IMG/VR virus record: IMGVR_UViG_3300046492_000369
Location: 1-64,000 of that record
Reading direction: 5' to 3' (one strand)
DNA: 64,000 nucleotides
Source of the DNA: a virus
Shown: positions 735-34,847 of the stretch, piece after piece
How the letters are laid out: each line of letters opens with the position of its first letter
Numbering within the stretch: the first letter of the stretch is position 1
Program-made: the position numbers and the translations under genes
Notes under the pieces: generated by a model
Databases searched by the model: none
Seen by the model: only the letters and a program-made list of their open reading frames with translations
Told to the model about the DNA's origin: nothing

Positions 735-3323
735 TTAGGACTGGTTGACGTTGGCACCAAAGTTAATCGGGCAGGCACCAGAGGCACAATCCACATGTTC
801 CATACCCACGTCTTCCTGCACATCGTCATTCGACTTGATCGCATTGACGATCATCTCGAATTCCGCTTTGGTGACAGGTTGTTCGGGTAGGTACTCGTAG
901 GCCGAGGTATCCGACTGCGGCATGACACTGCAGCAGCGAATCGAGCTCTGGCCTTCCATCAGCGTCCGCATGAACTCCGCGAAACTGGTGACCTGGGGCT
1001 TGTACTTCAGGGTGTAACTGACCTGATTGCCGGTATCACGCAGGGGCGTAACACCATCTTCTTCCACACCGACGATCCAGTATTTCTCCAGCAGGCGCAA
1101 CCACTGGTATTGGTCTTCAGGGGTGGCATCACCAGCAGTCACGAGCTTGTCGCCCATGCCCAGCGTGGCAATGGTAGGAATCGTCGGGAAGCCAACGATG
1201 GTGGTACCGTTGTAGGTTTGCAGTTCGCGGATCGGATAACCCTGCTTGCGGTACGTTTCGATCAACGGATCATCGTTGCGGAACTGGACCCAGCGCAGGT
1301 ACTCGCCCATGGATGGCAGGTGGGCACCTTCAGTCAAACCAAACAGCTTGGAGGTCGTCCCTGCTGGTTTCATCGTGGTATCGGTGTGCGGCACCACTAC
1401 GCCCAGCAGTTTTGAGTACACCAGTGCTTCATCTTGCACAGCACGTTTGAAGCGCGACAGCATTTGCCAGAACGGTTGTGAAACCTCTTCATCAACCAGA
1501 TCTTTCCAGCCGAAGCCAAAACGTGCCCAAGCGTATTCGTGCAGGCCGGTCATGCCGACACCAATGCGGTTGGTGCGTGCTACTTCCTTCTTGTACAAGG
1601 AGTCCATCAGGTTAGTGCGGATCAGGGCACGAGTAGCGACCTTGAAAGCGTCTTCTGCATCGTTGTCCCACTCATAGTGGCAAAGTTCTGCATCATCACT
1701 CAAGTTGGCCCTATAGGTGTACCCAGCATGGAACGGCACCACATCAGCGATGACGCAGTAACCACCGAGCAGGTTCAGGACGATCTCACCGCACGGATTG
1801 GTGATGACCTTGTACTTCATCCGGGACCATGCCTGTGCCAGCACACGGGCTAGTTGCTTACCTTCCGGAGTCATCTTGTACTTCTGGCTTTCTGCGAATT
1901 CGCCATCGAGCAGGTTGTCGGTACCATCACCATTCCATGTAAGACGTTCTACCGTGATGAAACCGGGTTCGCCGGTACCATCGAAGTAGGAAGCCTCGCA
2001 GGCTGCGGTGAACACCTTCCACGCATGGATCTGGGTCGGTGTGAAGCAGTCCTTACCAATTAACTTGTGGAAGCCGCCCTTGTCGGTCAGTTCATAGCCG
2101 TTGATCTGCATAAGAGCAGCAACATGCTTGACACCATTCCAGAACTCCATGTCCACCATGACGGAGTTATTCGAGCTCCACAGGAAGCCACCACGCTTCA
2201 GTTCAATGAAGCCAAAGATGGTTTCATCGGTCCAGCACTTGGTGGCCATCCGGGCTGCACGACGAGCTCCACCCACCAATACACATTCAGCGAAGTAGTG
2301 GTCGGCATACATCGCAGCACGCCATGGCTGCATGCCTGCATCACGCAGCTTGGCTACGCAGGCGATTGCATGCATCAGCGGTCCTGGCCCGGAAGCCGGA
2401 CGACCCTGCATGCCCCCAATCGGGGAACCCTTGCAGCGCACATCAGAGAAGTCGATGAGCAGGACATCATTACGGAAGCAACCCGCATAGGTCATGGTTT
2501 CCAGCTTCTCGATAGCCTGTGCCCAGCCTTCACGACTGTCCGGTACGCGGAAAGTGTGGATCGTCTTGTGTGCATACATGTGGGCTGCCGATCGGGCATC
2601 CAGTGCGACGATTTCACGCGATTGCACATCCTTGTGGGACATGTCGATCACGCAGACCACGGTGGGCATGAGGCGGTAATCCACCTGCATCATGGCGTCA
2701 TCGTAGCAGCGCCCGACTCCAGAACCGTTCAGCAGCAGGTAGAATTCGAGGAAGCTCATCGCACTGGTGCTGCAGTTCGTAAACACTTCCATGTTGCGGT
2801 TGATCTGGTTGGCATCCCCATGCTGCAGGTGTCGTCCCGACATGAGCAGGCTGGCTTGACGCAGATGATGGTGCATCGCGTCGAACTCGATCTGAAAGGG
2901 AGATGGACCTTGGGCTGCCAGCAGGGAGCTGGCATCGGGACTGCGGCGGTCCCATTGGGTGCGGGGATCGAGCATGGCATTGCCGTAGGAGACACGGTAT
3001 GCCACATCGGCCCACTTCTCAGTCTCAACGTCAGCAATGACATTGAGGGTAACGACCACAGTCTGGTCATCACCCTTATCGACTTTGTAGCCGTTAGGGG
3101 CGGCTTCAATCTTGAGGTGGTTGGATTTGCAGTAGGCTGCCACTTCATCGTCGAGCGAGATGTCGTCGCGTCGCGGCAGTTCGATGACTTGGGTCCGGGA
3201 GGCAGGACGATCAATCTTGCGGTTGATGGTGCGGTTGGCCACCGCATCTCCCATACCCTTATCGTATTCCCGGGCGGGTACATTAGCTGGACGACGCCAC
3301 GAGTTTTGACGGGTTACTTGCAT
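735..3323 (-). CDS. nrdJ: class II (adenosylcobalamin-dependent) ribonucleotide reductase
   Basis: FTNCS, LNGSGVG, VVGGxRR-like VLVGGARRAA, TNPCGEI thiyl loop, RIGVGMTG, KPAGTTS, C-terminal CASGACPI; no beta-subunit gene nearby. Confidence 0.92.
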   Translation of the reverse strand: MQVTRQNSWRRPANVPAREYDKGMGDAVANRTINRKIDRPASRTQVIELPRRDDISLDDEVAAYCKSNHLKIEAAPNGYKVDKGDDQTVVVTLNVIADVETEKWADVAYRVSYGNAMLDPRTQWDRRSPDASSLLAAQGPSPFQIEFDAMHHHLRQASLLMSGRHLQHGDANQINRNMEVFTNCSTSAMSFLEFYLLLNGSGVGRCYDDAMMQVDYRLMPTVVCVIDMSHKDVQSREIVALDARSAAHMYAHKTIHTFRVPDSREGWAQAIEKLETMTYAGCFRNDVLLIDFSDVRCKGSPIGGMQGRPASGPGPLMHAIACVAKLRDAGMQPWRAAMYADHYFAECVLVGGARRAARMATKCWTDETIFGFIELKRGGFLWSSNNSVMVDMEFWNGVKHVAALMQINGYELTDKGGFHKLIGKDCFTPTQIHAWKVFTAACEASYFDGTGEPGFITVERLTWNGDGTDNLLDGEFAESQKYKMTPEGKQLARVLAQAWSRMKYKVITNPCGEIVLNLLGGYCVIADVVPFHAGYTYRANLSDDAELCHYEWDNDAEDAFKVATRALIRTNLMDSLYKKEVARTNRIGVGMTGLHEYAWARFGFGWKDLVDEEVSQPFWQMLSRFKRAVQDEALVYSKLLGVVVPHTDTTMKPAGTTSKLFGLTEGAHLPSMGEYLRWVQFRNDDPLIETYRKQGYPIRELQTYNGTTIVGFPTIPTIATLGMGDKLVTAGDATPEDQYQWLRLLEKYWIVGVEEDGVTPLRDTGNQVSYTLKYKPQVTSFAEFMRTLMEGQSSIRCCSVMPQSDTSAYEYLPEQPVTKAEFEMIVNAIKSNDDVQEDVGMEHVDCASGACPINFGANVNQS

Positions 3324-26158: not shown

Positions 26159-27325
26159 CTATTCGGTGTGGGTGTTGTAGTAGATAATTTTCCCGAACGG
26201 GGCAGTCCAGTCCGGGTTATCGTGGATCATCCACAGGATGTTGGTGTTACAGGTATCCCTGTCGTGATAGAAGCCACCATCAGTAAAGATCATGGCCACC
26301 TTCGGCTTGGTCTTCTCGATATGGTCCAATACATCGGTGATGACAGTACCACCCCGGCCATGGAACTTCACATTGGCCAAGTCCACGACGTTACGCACCG
26401 GAGTGATCGACTTGATGCAGGTGTCGAACTGTCCCAGCTCGATCTTTTTGGGCTTCATCATGCGCAGGATACCGTTGATCTCGGAGACGAAGCGTTGGAA
26501 GTCCTCATCGGTTTCCGAACCAGAGATATCCACCCATGCCTGGAAGTCCACCATGGCCCCTTCGCTCCACAGCGATGGAAGATAGTGATCTGGCATGAAA
26601 CGACGGTTGGGTCGCTTCCAGCTATAGTCGAACTTGCCCAAGCTTTTGAGCCACTTGCGCAGAATGGTCTGCCATGGCAACTTGGGGTCGAGCAGCTTGT
26701 CGAGGTACAGTTCGATCTCGCCAGGAATGGCTCCTGGCTTTTCATTGGCCATGCGGGAATGGGTAATGGCCCGAACCAAGATGTCATCGAGCGATCGCTT
26801 CAAATCATCGGCAGGCATCTTGTCGCCTTGCCCTTCACCGTCACCTTCCCCGGGTTCACGCAGGTCCGGCATGCCATTTTGCGGTTGCGGTGCCCCTTGC
26901 TGTTGTTCCTCCTGCAGGAGCTTGTACACTTCTTCGGTGCTCATGCCCTTGAAACGGTCATCGGCCAGTCGCATGGCAGGCAGCTTGAAGCCACGTTCCA
27001 GCAAGTACAGGTTGATAACATGATCGGCTGCAATGTTGAACAGGTTACGGTCCCGGGTACCTAGACGCACCGTATGCATGTAGGCCACATGGCAGCACTC
27101 GTGCACCAACACACCGATCCGTTCTTCTGGCCTCAGGCTCAGGAAGAAGTTACGGTTGAACCCCAGCTTCAGTCCCGTGGTCCATGCGGTTGGGTGGGCA
27201 TCATCCCAGACGAACTTCATGCTGAACAGGATGGTAGTAAAGAAGTGGGTTTCCGGGTGCTGCATCAGGCCGATCTTGGCCTTGTCCAGCAGCTTGTTCA
27301 GCTGGGCTTGATCAATGGTTTGCAT
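26159..27325 (-). CDS. metallopeptidase-vWA protein (DUF2201-like, N4 gp25-like)
   Basis: HECCH (HExxH), NIAADHVIN, MIDAS DISGS...GRGGT...FTDG. Confidence 0.9.
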   Translation of the reverse strand: MQTIDQAQLNKLLDKAKIGLMQHPETHFFTTILFSMKFVWDDAHPTAWTTGLKLGFNRNFFLSLRPEERIGVLVHECCHVAYMHTVRLGTRDRNLFNIAADHVINLYLLERGFKLPAMRLADDRFKGMSTEEVYKLLQEEQQQGAPQPQNGMPDLREPGEGDGEGQGDKMPADDLKRSLDDILVRAITHSRMANEKPGAIPGEIELYLDKLLDPKLPWQTILRKWLKSLGKFDYSWKRPNRRFMPDHYLPSLWSEGAMVDFQAWVDISGSETDEDFQRFVSEINGILRMMKPKKIELGQFDTCIKSITPVRNVVDLANVKFHGRGGTVITDVLDHIEKTKPKVAMIFTDGGFYHDRDTCNTNILWMIHDNPDWTAPFGKIIYYNTHTE

Positions 27326-31266: not shown

Positions 31267-32208
31267 TTAAAACAAGGCTTCAGCATGCATACCCAACCAC
31301 TTCTGCATGTCTGCATCGTTGACCAGCTCTTTGTTGCGACCCAGCACCATCCTTACGCACACCACTTGGAATTCCAGTGGCAGGCGCTTGATGTACTTCA
31401 TCAGTGGGTTGATGTTCACCTTGTTGATCTTGTCCGCAATGCTACCGGACAGAGCAAACAGGATGCTTGGCTCACCTGGTACCTGGATCGATTCAGGATT
31501 GGCCATGATCTCGGCTACCGTGGGCAACTGGTCGAAGATCTTGCAGTAGCTGAGAAATTCCCGTGCCACGCCTTCGGACAGGGTACCAGCCAACAGCGGC
31601 AGCATGTCGGCGTCGTTGGCGTCCATGATCTTCAGGAAGCTATCCGCAAATTCCCATGTCCGTGGCGAAGCATAGGTACGATCCGAGTGGTCTGGCTTGA
31701 AGGTGTACAACAACGTAGGTCGGAACTCCATGAAGCTGATGATGCGGTGGTCAAGACCAGTAGCAGACGCCCACTGTACCCATTCAACAGGATTAACCAC
31801 CATTTCCATGTGCACGATACGCGACTGCAGTGCAGTGCTCATCTGCTCGACGATGGCTCCATCGGTTTCTAGGTTACCAGCACAGACTACCGCCACATTC
31901 TTATGCAGGTTGTACTTGCCCACCATCCGATCGAGCACGACCTTGTAAGACGCGGCTTGAACGGCGACCGAAGCACTGTTGAACTCATCCAGGAACAGCA
32001 ACCAACCATTATAAGCTTGGCCATTTTCTGGATTAATAGGTAATGAGTCACCTTCAATAGGAAAAGTGTCCATTGGCAAATACCCGGCACGATTACCTTG
32101 TATATTAGGAAATCCGAGGATATCTGTAGGGTCACATTGAGAAAGACGTAAATCAATCAATTTAAGATTATATTCACGCGCTATTTGATGCACGATTCCT
32201 GACTTACC
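31267..32208 (-). CDS. MoxR-type AAA+ ATPase (N4 gp24-like), exon 2
   Basis: begins GKS (second half of Walker A), IDLRLSQCDPTD, LLFLDEFNSA (Walker B), AGN, STALQSR, SPRTW; join(33213..33091,32208..31267) gives 354 aa. Confidence 0.92.
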   Translation of the reverse strand, partial: GKSGIVHQIAREYNLKLIDLRLSQCDPTDILGFPNIQGNRAGYLPMDTFPIEGDSLPINPENGQAYNGWLLFLDEFNSASVAVQAASYKVVLDRMVGKYNLHKNVAVVCAGNLETDGAIVEQMSTALQSRIVHMEMVVNPVEWVQWASATGLDHRIISFMEFRPTLLYTFKPDHSDRTYASPRTWEFADSFLKIMDANDADMLPLLAGTLSEGVAREFLSYCKIFDQLPTVAEIMANPESIQVPGEPSILFALSGSIADKINKVNINPLMKYIKRLPLEFQVVCVRMVLGRNKELVNDADMQKWLGMHAEALF

Positions 32209-33090
32209 CTTGGTATTCAAGAGAGTACGTTACCCCCCTCTCCGCTATTAAGCTGCTCATGCTTTCGCATGAGAATAGACTATATCTTCATCTTATACTG
32301 ACATGGCCGACACATAATGTTGGTCTGTCTCAGCGTCGAAGAATCAGTTCTGCATACAAGTTTTGTAGGGCAATTAGAGCAATAAAATTCTACAAAATTA
32401 CGTGGATTTTCATTGATCACTCGAATAAAATTCAAGCCTAATTTTTCCCTGAAAAATTTCTCTGTTACAGCAAACTTGGCAGCACTTGCTGCTTTACTGG
32501 CATTCAGATAGGGTGTTTTACCCATACTAATCGCGTGTAATTGATTTCCTGATTTTGTAGTCCATTCCAGATTGTCTTTCCAATCATGGCCAGGAACCAA
32601 ATCCTTGTGATTTACTTCCACATCATCTGGTCCTTTGACCAGATAAATTTCAGCAACCATTCGGTGTACAAAAAATCGTTCAGTTTTACCTTGTATTGAC
32701 AGAGTAACCCGACGATAGCCTTTTGGCATTACATCGGCTTTTAGTGCAGTACTTTTTCCTTTTCGATATACATTCCCATCTTCTGATACCAGATAAGGCG
32801 TATTTCTGAATTGACGCATATTTTACCTTTTAAGGAGAACCACATACATGGTAGACCTGTTGAGGTAAAAAGTAAAGAGCTTCCCATTTCCACCCACTTG
32901 GGTGTACGGCTTTCGCCTAGTCGTTGAACGTTCACCTATACGGTGCTTCGCTGCTGATTGCCCAATTCTCATACTTTTCAAGCCTTGGCTTTGTCTTTCG
33001 ACGCGCAGTGGCAATGAGACTATCAGGAGTTTCCAGCAATTAGAGAAGTTTGTTTTGACACCTCACGGTGAAAGCTATCTAGTAGAGTCA
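32209..33090 (-). mobile_element. group I intron (IA2-like) with homing endonuclease ORF
   Basis: P AATTGCTGGAAA (33041-33030), Q AATCAGCAGC (32959-32950), R GTTCAACGACTAG (32929-32917), S AAGATATAGTCT (32288-32277); P1 GCTATT/GATAGC with U.G at the splice site; terminal G at 32209; P9 CTCATGC-GAAA-GCATGAG. Confidence 0.93.
32280..32819 (-). CDS. intron-encoded HNH homing endonuclease with C-terminal Cys cluster
   Basis: YLVSEDGNVY..., VHRMVAE...VNHKD...NLEWTT.SGNQLHA, CSNC...C...CRPC. Confidence 0.88.
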   Translation of the reverse strand: MRQFRNTPYLVSEDGNVYRKGKSTALKADVMPKGYRRVTLSIQGKTERFFVHRMVAEIYLVKGPDDVEVNHKDLVPGHDWKDNLEWTTKSGNQLHAISMGKTPYLNASKAASAAKFAVTEKFFREKLGLNFIRVINENPRNFVEFYCSNCPTKLVCRTDSSTLRQTNIMCRPCQYKMKI

Positions 33091-33213
33091 AATAGCTGGT
33101 GAGCCATGAATCATGGCCACACGCTTAGCCTTGATGCAGGCCGTGACCATGCGGATGGCCTGACTGATGGTGACTTTCAGGGTCTGTTGTACTTCGTTGT
33201 CGTTCTTTGCCAT
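33091..33213 (-). CDS. MoxR-type AAA+ ATPase, exon 1 (41 codons, absent from the ORF track)
   Basis: MAKNDNEVQQTLKVTISQAIRMVTACIKAKRVAMIHGSPAI; joins exon 2 in frame to give GSPAIGKS. Confidence 0.9.
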
Positions 33214-33881: not shown

Positions 33882-34053
33882 ATTTTTCTCTCTCTGAAGT
33901 GGGAAGCACCAACGCCAGCATGGTGTTGTGCTTACGTTGTAGTTTGATGAGCCTGCGCAGCTCACTGCTGGGAGTGTTCTTCACACCCCGTTTTTGAAGG
34001 AATGAGATCCGTTGATTAACCTCAACCGGTGTGAATGCCTTCACACCTTTCAT
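33868..34053 (-). CDS. small basic hypothetical protein
   Basis: ATGA overlap with upstream gene. Confidence 0.55.
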   Translation of the reverse strand: MKGVKAFTPVEVNQRISFLQKRGVKNTPSSELRRLIKLQRKHNTMLALVLPTSEREKYGRR

Positions 34054-34847
34054 GGCATGGCCAGAGTTTTCTGGAAAGTTGTCTTAGCTACTTCTTTAGG
34101 CTTGAGACCACCTTCAATAAAGTACTGATGCAGCAGAGTGTTGATCATGCGTACACCAATGGTGTTCTTCTCGTGGTTTTCGGTCAAAACCTTCATGATG
34201 GACGTAACTACCAGATCTTTGCTGACAGTAGGAATCAGAGTCAGATAATGGGCCAGTAGTTTGCTGTTCTCCAGAATATTCTGCATCTGTTCAAGGCTGA
34301 CTTTATCCATTCCATAAGCCAAGCCAACACGACCAAGAAATTCTGTCTTCAAACCGAATTCACGCAGCCTGTCGATCGTAATGTTCTCTTCACCATTGAA
34401 AGCACCAGCAAAGATGAATAAGACATTATCTGTCTTGATGTTATGGTACTTGCCGTAGTCAGCCGAGATGTTGGCCAGTCCTTCAAGCGCTTTCAGGAAC
34501 TCATTCTGCACGCCATTGGTGGTTTCATGGGCCAATGCGGAGTTGGAGTTGCCACTGATGAACAGCTTGTCAAACTCATCAACGAAGCACACCACTGGAC
34601 GGCCACCATACTGCACCAATGGAGCCAGTGCCTTGGACAGGGAATTGCCTGCGGTGCCTTCCTTGGTCAAGCCAGCCGCATTGATCTCAACCATGGGGAG
34701 GTCAAGCTCTTCGCACAGCATGCCGATGTTGTGGCTCTTGCCTGAACCGGAGGGACCGGTGACGATGAAATGCGGACGGATCTCGCCTTCACTGTTGAGG
34801 TAGATGTTAAGGATGCGACGGATGCTGTCGATGGACTTCTGGCTCAC
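34050..34847 (-). CDS. ClpX/HslU-like AAA+ ATPase, truncated form
   Basis: GPSGSGKS, FVDEFDKL, GVQNEFLKALEG, VLFIFAGAF, FGLKTEFLGRV, IGVR; GTG start after AGGAG. Confidence 0.85.
   Translation of the reverse strand: MSQKSIDSIRRILNIYLNSEGEIRPHFIVTGPSGSGKSHNIGMLCEELDLPMVEINAAGLTKEGTAGNSLSKALAPLVQYGGRPVVCFVDEFDKLFISGNSNSALAHETTNGVQNEFLKALEGLANISADYGKYHNIKTDNVLFIFAGAFNGEENITIDRLREFGLKTEFLGRVGLAYGMDKVSLEQMQNILENSKLLAHYLTLIPTVSKDLVVTSIMKVLTENHEKNTIGVRMINTLLHQYFIEGGLKPKEVAKTTFQKTLAMP

Follow-up and report, generated by a model that had tools for sequence, protein, structure and literature searches.

A predicted mobile group I intron in the Walker A motif of an N4 gp24-like AAA+ ATPase gene

Introduction

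What interrupts an AAA+ ATPase gene in the middle of its Walker A motif, and could an intact protein still be made from it? The question arises from IMG/VR virus record IMGVR_UViG_3300046492_000369, of which positions 1 to 64,000 were analyzed (this whole stretch of 64,000 nt is referred to as the window). The record is complete, spans 77,041 bp with direct terminal repeats and has an N4-like gene content; it is the 77-kb genome of an uncultivated N4-like (Schitoviridae-type) phage. A preliminary description, made without database searches, had proposed that removal of a group I intron from 33090..32209 would restore an open reading frame (ORF) of 354 codons for a MoxR-type ATPase, and these coordinates turned out to be exact. 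Very likely, the interruption is a mobile intron (group I, subgroup IA) that resides in the Walker A motif of an N4 gp24-type AAA+ ATPase gene and carries its own HNH endonuclease gene, the latter being absent from the preliminary description. The element is new for this genome, while the gene and the site are already known for introns.

Removal of the intron restores the ATPase reading frame

On the minus strand, exon 1 ends with the codons GGC TCA CCA GCT ATT (last position 33091), and exon 2 opens with GGT AAG TCA at 32208. An in-frame TGA directly after exon 1 opens the intron, a G at 32209 closes it, and the reading frame is kept upon its removal. Conceptual splicing by script joins GSPAI to GKS, yielding a 354-aa protein with the Walker A sequence GSPAIGKS; the predicted ligated junction reads ...CCAGCUAUU/GGUAAGUCA... 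(slash, point of ligation). In uninterrupted relatives, the corresponding Walker A motif is G-S-P-[GA]-x-G-K-S. At L011:2971-3030, an allele naturally free of the intron, 27 of the 30 central bases equal those of the joined exons. The conceptual protein aligned in a single high-scoring segment pair across the junction with 81 of 82 IMG/VR relatives (identity up to 67%), and the sole apparent exception, genome L037, has an intron at the same place. Likewise, the two exons together match PHROG 1297, the N4 gp24-like ATPase family, over its full length (E = 9e-5 for exon 1 and 5e-112 for exon 2). As the profile match, the colinearity with relatives and the RNA pairings described below agree on the exact junction, we place the insertion with high confidence between two codons (phase 0), those for Ile and Gly in the Walker A motif.

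The search with the group I covariance model that the preliminary description had suggested returned RF00028 (Intron_gpI) at 33102..32256 (minus strand) with 58.8 bits (E = 2.3e-12), above the curated gathering threshold of 50 bits and covering the full model (positions 1-253). This was the sole gathering-level Rfam match in the window. A Logan contig of 43.6 kb, produced by a second assembler, covers the whole of the split locus with 0 differences and contains no intron-less joint; as it may come from the same sample, it does not count as independent DNA, and it is silent on expression.

The ribozyme has a subgroup IA architecture

The cmscan alignment revealed near-consensus core elements, as had been noted from the sequence beforehand: P = AAUUGCUGGAAA, Q = AAUCAGCAGC, R = GUUCAACGACUAG and S = AAGAUAUAGUCU. 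Both splice-site pairings foreseen in the preliminary description were recovered as well. P1 forms between AGCUAUU, the last 7 nt of exon 1, and the internal guide sequence GAUAGCU, so that the last U of the exon faces a G where the 5' splice site lies (U.G pair), and the guide covaries in the sister introns. P10 pairs intron nucleotides 1-11 with GGUAAGUCA in exon 2 (9 bp, one bulge, -7.9 kcal/mol), compared to -3.6 +/- 2.0 kcal/mol for shuffled sequences, 18 out of 500 of which scored as well, and to -2.5 kcal/mol at best for non-cognate exons. All helix strands and coordinates (Table 1) were checked for complementarity in each sequence by script, and every core helix proved complementary. 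In a MAFFT alignment of seven intron 5' halves, P1 and P2 were out of register by one column from row to row, and pairs were not counted from it.

Two extra hairpins follow the R element, and the preliminary description had called them IA2-like. They correspond to P7.1 and P7.2, whose presence assigns the predicted ribozyme to subgroup IA, with an architecture like that of the T4 td and SPO1 introns. Since Rfam provides one model for all group I introns, the assignment stays at the level of IA rather than that of IA1, IA2 or IA3.

Table 1 Features of the split ATPase locus and introns at the same site in other genomes. Coordinates refer to the window; a slash in a peptide marks the insertion site.
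Feature	Position	Strand	Remarks
Group I intron	32209..33090	-	882 nt; Rfam RF00028; 41% G+C vs 52% in the window
Exon 1, gp24-like AAA+ ATPase	33091..33213	-	ORF, 41 codons, ends GSPAI; PHROG 1297 profile positions 3-36
Exon 2, ATPase	31267..32208	-	313 codons plus stop, begins GKS; PHROG 1297 positions 37-349
Intron 5' end	33073..33090	-	In-frame UGA; P10 guide UGACUCUACUA 33090..33080; internal guide sequence GAUAGCU 33079..33073
P2 hairpin CACC-GUGA-GGUG	33059..33070	-	Complementarity; variants GGGG/CCCC, UAAGC/GCUUA, UAUC/GAUA and CAUGG/CCAUG in relatives
Core domain P3-P4-P5/P5a-P6-P7(5')-P7.1-P7.2-P3' with P, Q and R	32880..33048	-	cmscan alignment
P3	33048..33043 with 32885..32880	-	
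P4	33038..33033 with 32957..32952	-	
P5a	33019..33014 with 32972..32967	-	
P6/P6a	32951..32928	-	
R element and P7 5' strand	32930..32918	-	
P7.1 GGC-GAAA-GCC	32917..32908	-	
P7.2 CACCC-AAGU-GGGUG	32904..32891	-	
P8 5' strand UCUUUAC	32872..32878	-	Pairs with GUA(U)AAGA 32298..32291; L037 counterpart UCCGUUA/UAACGGA
HNH homing endonuclease ORF, 179 aa	32280..32819	-	P8 loop; I-HmuI-like catalytic domain and C-terminal CxxC...CxxC zinc ribbon
P8 3' strand and S element/P7 3' strand, GUAUAAGA UGAAGAUAUAGUC	32278..32298	-	S/P7 3' = 32290..32278
3' domain: P9, P9.1, P9.2, tail, terminal G 32209	32209..32273	-	
P9 CUCAUGC-GAAA-GCAUGAG	32273..32256	-	Covaries in all relatives
P9.1 and P9.2 (GAGAG...CUCUC)	32253..32221	-	Complementarity
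Low-GC3 patch, exon 2	32005..32208	-	68 codons, 204 nt; probable 3' co-conversion tract
Low-GC3 patch, end of exon 1	33091..33111	-	7 codons, 21 nt; probable short 5' co-conversion tract
Same-site intron, L037 (IMG/VR)			977 nt, 206-aa HNH ORF; GSPGI/GKS; RF00028 74 bits
Same-site intron, L313 (IMG/VR)			972 nt, 202-aa ORF; GNPGI/GKS
Same-site intron, L295 (IMG/VR)			888 nt, 185-aa ORF; GSPGI/GKS
Same-site intron, E. coli phage Pollock			390 nt, no ORF; GSPGI/GKS; RF00028 101 bits
Same-site intron, Vibrio cholerae phage VCO139			940 nt, HNH ORF; GSPGV/GKS; RF00028 52 bits

Introns at the same site covary with their exons

The preliminary description had recommended a survey of gp24-like genes for the same site. 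By combining an IMG/VR scan for the R-P7.1 signature with searches of phage records, we identified introns at exactly this position in five further genomes (Table 1). Vibrio phages JA-1 and JSF3 gave intron and endonuclease search matches identical to those of VCO139. The hedged statement of the preliminary description that no intron was known in this ATPase family consequently does not hold: the site is occupied in VCO139, Pollock and three IMG/VR genomes, and introns at other sites of the gene are annotated in the phages Pylas and pYD6-A.

The guide sequences changed along with the exon ends they pair with, giving the exon/guide combinations AGCUAUU/GAUAGCU, GGUAUU/GGUACC, GGAAUU/GAUUCC, GGGUAUU/GAUACCC and GGUGUU/GACACC. 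In a cross-table of five introns and their exon ends, the cognate P1 energy was the best of each row (tied where exon ends are identical); P1 of VCO139 stood outside this table and was checked for complementarity only. For the intron of the window and that of L037, the cognate P10 was also the best pairing. Further compensatory changes across the introns were found in P2, P3, P6, P7.1, P7.2, P8 and P9. This comparative signal, albeit indirect, is the strongest available support for use of the RNA as a ribozyme and for splicing at the predicted junction.

An HNH endonuclease gene overlaps the 3' part of the ribozyme

The 179-aa ORF in the P8 loop matches PHROG 59 ('HNH endonuclease'; E = 4e-24), and its residues 9-116 match I-HmuI (PDB 1U3E; E = 1.7e-9). 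Its C-terminal third contains CxxC...CxxC, which resembles a zinc ribbon. Its 3' end is embedded in the ribozyme, in that the last codons (K-M-K-I-stop) constitute the P8 3' strand and the S element, with the UAG stop (32282..32280) lying inside the P7 3' strand. A database search returned 15 homologues of 50-88% identity, mostly of equal length and one of them on a 75-kb contig; most of these also end with KMKI. Across the 16 family members, N70, H71, D73, N83, N92 and four cysteines are invariant, a conservation pattern that suggests purifying selection in the same intron context.

The ORF is 34-40% identical, over its full length including the zinc ribbon, to the ORFs of the same-site introns of L037 and L295. 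The S element is read as K-M-K-I-stop here (32280..32294, minus strand) and in most 179-aa relatives; the ORFs of L037, L313 and L295 use a different frame of the same RNA (D-E-D-I-V...) and terminate within P9. Scans that started from the endonuclease revealed no locus flanked by a gp24 homologue (0 of 160 viral and metagenome contig loci), only distant HNH genes, and a corresponding scan of genome contigs found no relative.

A low-GC3 patch adjoins the intron

Within the gene, G+C content at third codon positions (GC3) is unevenly distributed. The best low-GC3 segment comprises codons 35-109 (33111..32005), with a GC3 of 0.21 compared to 0.70 outside, and no codon permutation out of 200 attained its likelihood ratio. 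In intron-less relatives, this part of the gene has no such dip. The intron that splits the segment is itself low in G+C (Table 1), and its ORF even more so (38%). As judged from this composition, the patch is probably a co-conversion tract left by recent homing from a lower-GC donor, a relative with AT-rich codon usage; as such, it would provide a clean natural example of exon co-conversion. A low-GC intron adjoined by a low-GC3 exon patch points to a fairly recent gain of the intron by homing.

The distribution of same-site introns is sporadic: L037 is alone among the 82 closest relatives, yet the site is also occupied in distant subfamilies. Loss can be traced, too. The 390-nt Pollock intron (L003:855-1244) is 92.9% identical, in two pieces, to the 888-nt intron of L295 (707-1594, minus strand), with the ORF cleanly absent, and it keeps the residues C-R-K-C-S-K-D-E-D-I of the C-terminus of the lost ORF. 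By this comparison, the Pollock intron is an endonuclease-deletion derivative of an L295-type intron and represents the step of the usual homing cycle at which the endonuclease is lost.

Taking these observations together, we lean slightly towards the view that the Walker A intron and its zinc-ribbon HNH gene form one old lineage moving between distant Schitoviridae, and that the patch is a preserved, strongly one-sided tract of a nicking-type HNH enzyme. The genomes hosting same-site introns range in G+C content from 36% (Pollock) to the 52% found here, and the GC3 of L037 is higher still. Under such a history, the near-invariance of the P-loop codons would account for a spread from Vibrio and Escherichia hosts to a rhizosphere bacterium. 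Were the one-sided tract confirmed, it would constitute a natural record of the reach and direction of donor exon copying during homing.

Proposed mechanism and alternative explanations

In the transcript, the internal guide sequence would pair with the end of exon 1 to form P1, and the 5' splice site would be attacked by an exogenous G at the U.G pair. P10 would then align exon 2, the terminal G would be exchanged, and ligation would yield an mRNA for the intact ATPase. On unspliced RNA, the in-frame UGA at intron position 1 may halt ribosomes. The I-HmuI-like enzyme would presumably act on intron-less gp24 alleles, nicking or cutting them at the highly conserved P-loop codons, and repair of the break would copy the intron together with flanking exon sequence.

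Several observations weigh against this scheme. The ORF scored below the Pfam cut-off for HNH_3 (18.6 vs 24.8 bits), and no NUMOD4 match was returned for it by Pfam, while the homologous ORFs of L037 and of the second Pollock intron pass both models; truncation of this N-terminal region could have weakened the endonuclease. The protein encoded by the low-GC3 patch is as near to its closest relatives (75-78% identity) as that encoded by the rest of the gene. With the nearest relatives unchanged at the protein level, no donor can be named, and the co-conversion reading is a matter of synonymous composition only. In L313, L295 and Pollock, the top P10 score belongs to a pairing other than the cognate one. 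Lastly, we infer the splicing of this intron and of its same-site relatives from structure and covariation, and the activity and target of the endonuclease as well as the direction and date of transfer are likewise deduced rather than observed.

Could the element be a dead relic, i.e. a former group I intron that no longer splices, leaving the ATPase inactivated or reduced to a P-loop-less 313-aa product of exon 2? With splicing deduced from sequence, this has some appeal, the more so as the ORF list contains a TTG-initiated ORF of 317 aa (32220..31267) that would be called automatically. Yet every core helix is intact, as are the U.G pair, the terminal G and P10, and the guide fits its own exon better than the exons of the sister introns, which argues for selection for splicing after insertion. 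The gene is present without interruption in 81 of 82 relatives, the genome record is complete with direct terminal repeats, and a polypeptide made from exon 2 only would be missing the first Gly as well as the strand preceding the P-loop. On balance, decay of this kind appears very improbable. Somewhat less so, though still unlikely, is an intron that splices but whose endonuclease is inactive, so that it is now immobile and the patch has another cause, e.g. an assembly chimera with a lower-GC relative. The sub-threshold HNH_3 score and the truncated NUMOD4 region would fit this, as would the fact that the genome is metagenomic, that the only DNA run found may be the source sample, and that the patch shows no excess of protein divergence. 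On the other hand, the ORF is intact, and the invariance of N70, H71, D73, N83 and the four cysteines in its 15 homologues is what purifying selection would be expected to leave. As for a chimera, the identical Logan contig of the second assembler offers no alternative joint, two switches exactly bracketing the intron would be required, and the GC3 dip, which resembles the intron in composition, directly adjoins it on either side.

A 'gene in pieces', for which nrdA of Aeromonas phage Aeh1 is the model (PMC5418858), would consist of a free-standing homing endonuclease (HE) insertion flanked by two polypeptides that reassemble without RNA splicing. Published relatives have in fact been described as an 'HE insertion' (ZC03/ZC08) or as genes that 'may be carried on an intron' (JA-1/VCO139). 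In the present case, however, a full-length ribozyme encloses the ORF, and the split falls inside the P-loop, where a 41-aa fragment ending in GSPAI would be unable to supply the P-loop in trans. Moreover, the junction offers no start codon for exon 2, and Pollock has kept the ribozyme despite losing the ORF. We hold reassembly from pieces to be the least plausible of these options, to the point of being hardly credible, and retain a splicing, mobile intron as the preferred explanation.

Relation to known introns

Fouts et al. (2013; PMC3670811) previously reported HNH genes that split the homologues of N4 gp24, DNA polymerase and gp43 in the phages JA1 and VchO139-I, remarking that these genes 'may be carried on an intron'. 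We found the gp24 split of VCO139 to include the same codon boundary as the intron described here. Both loci share the gene, the boundary, a group I core and an HNH ORF located in P8 and extending into the S element. They differ in that VCO139 has a second intron at residue 128/129, compared to one intron here, and that the endonucleases are only ~30% identical. In the VCO139, JA-1 and JSF3 records, neither the ribozyme nor its Walker A position is annotated or described. Pollock intron 1 (KM236242/NC_027381) occupies the identical site, follows the same P1/P10 logic and is ~70-75% identical in the core and 3' domain. Unlike the intron of the window, it lacks an ORF; it is unannotated, with exon 1 being recorded as a 29-aa hypothetical protein, and the genome announcement mentions a DNA polymerase intron only. 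A literature search on group I introns in N4-like phages and their ATPase, on Schitoviridae and on Walker A insertions returned no description of a ribozyme at this site.

Further insertions map elsewhere in gp24. The second introns at residue 128/129 of VCO139 (L355:2260-2981) and Pollock (L003:1488-2331) are sub-threshold in Rfam (22-33 bits); that of Pollock holds a NUMOD4-HNH ORF, and that of VCO139 spans an annotated HNH endonuclease ORF. In Klebsiella phage Pylas (MH899585), the record lists an 'ATPase split by intron' and an 'HNH homing endonuclease encoded in intron' in the same gene family, followed by a DUF2201/VWA-like gene. The insertion lies after ~125 codons, as estimated from the record coordinates, and hence near the 128/129 site, with its status as an intron being taken from the annotation. 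Pseudoalteromonas phage pYD6-A has a joined ATPase coding sequence with an HNH ORF inserted at ~residue 225, for which no Rfam group I match was returned. In the phages ZC03 and ZC08, an HE insertion in a protein with an ATPase domain has been described (Amgarten et al. 2017, PMC5418858). Here, as in genome L018, the insertion is at ~residue 70, ~28 codons past the Walker A site, and leaves the Walker A motif intact. The ZC03 insert (L008:11096-12004) gave a weak ribozyme match (25 bits), and the L018 insert (2124-3000, ~877 nt) no Rfam match at E <= 0.01. The host protein was named ribonucleotide reductase in the ZC03 paper (PMC5418858); it is a gp24-type ATPase. Altogether, gp24 is a hot spot for introns, with at least four sites (residues 41/42, ~70, 128/129 and ~225).

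The closest ribozyme found is located in another gene of N4-like phages, namely the RNAP2 (N4 gp16-like) intron of the Pseudomonas Litunavirus phages YH6, LP14 and Pa_WF01, which is 84-85% identical over 171 nt (33049..32879, from P3 to P3') and is annotated as Intron_gpI in Pa_WF01 (L001:3453-4471; OQ848593). It differs from the present intron in its host gene and guide, a short P8 hairpin and a 222-aa ORF that lies 3' of P9 and is unrelated to the HNH enzyme. A shared core combined with an unrelated ORF elsewhere in the intron indicates that ribozyme and endonuclease were combined independently; if the mobile history outlined above holds, the 84% core identity would document reshuffling of ribozymes and endonucleases, and their retargeting, in N4-like phages.

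Classical phage introns of subgroup IA2 with homing endonucleases are those of T4 td (I-TevI) and of the DNA polymerase gene of Bacillus phage SPO1 (I-HmuI). The present intron resembles both in its ribozyme plan with P7.1 and P7.2 and in its insertion in a highly conserved functional motif. It departs from them in its host gene and in the location of its ORF in P8, overlapping P7 3'. Compared to I-HmuI, the catalytic domain is homologous, whereas the C-terminus is a CxxC...CxxC zinc ribbon instead of the I-HmuI C-terminal domain.

By all these features, the element is typical of the selfish, mobile group I introns of phages that encode an HNH homing endonuclease, and adds one more selfish element to those found in the most conserved codons of essential-looking genes. 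The findings leave the current understanding of group I introns and homing unchanged. Three points deserve some attention, namely the clean and one-sided patch of low GC3, the ribozyme that the RNAP2 intron has in common with this one, and the way in which exon 1 is repeatedly mis-annotated in public records. Regarding the last of these, gene callers would report a 41-aa orphan and a P-loop-less 'ATPase' of 313-317 aa; the truncated ATPase that the preliminary description had foreseen is the very error seen in the Pollock and Vibrio phage records. Once the intron is recognized, the pieces join into a core gene that is conserved in N4-like phages.

The host ATPase and its neighborhood

In the preliminary description, the split gene had been labeled a MoxR-type ATPase. 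Exon 2 has no Pfam matches, including to models of the MoxR, AAA_3 and AAA_5 types, and for full-length intron-less homologues, AAA, AAA_5, bpMoxR and Sigma54_activat all remained sub-threshold. By tblastn, 849 phage records labeled ATPase or MoxR-like ATPase match exon 2. We inspected an AlphaFold2 model of L010, an intron-less homologue with 67% identity; the model had a mean predicted local distance difference test score of 87.9. A Foldseek search of the PDB with this model ranked NorQ first (E = 2e-8; TM score 0.63-0.66, normalized by target), ahead of dynein and Rea1 AAA modules and CbbQ. In addition, a candidate VWA-type partner, a protein with DUF2201_N and DUF2201 (VWA-like) domains, is encoded at 26159..27325 on the same strand, ~4 kb downstream. 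The label is hence reasonable at the level of the modeled fold and the gene context, although the Pfam models stay below cut-off.

Concerning the neighboring genes, the DUF2201 metallopeptidase/VWA-like protein (N4 gp25 type) lies apart from the ATPase here, but next to it in Pylas and Pollock. The ~4 kb in between contains small ORFs without family matches. Two genes upstream of the split gene, the minus strand encodes a 265-aa AAA/AAA_2 (Clp-like) ATPase (34050..34847).

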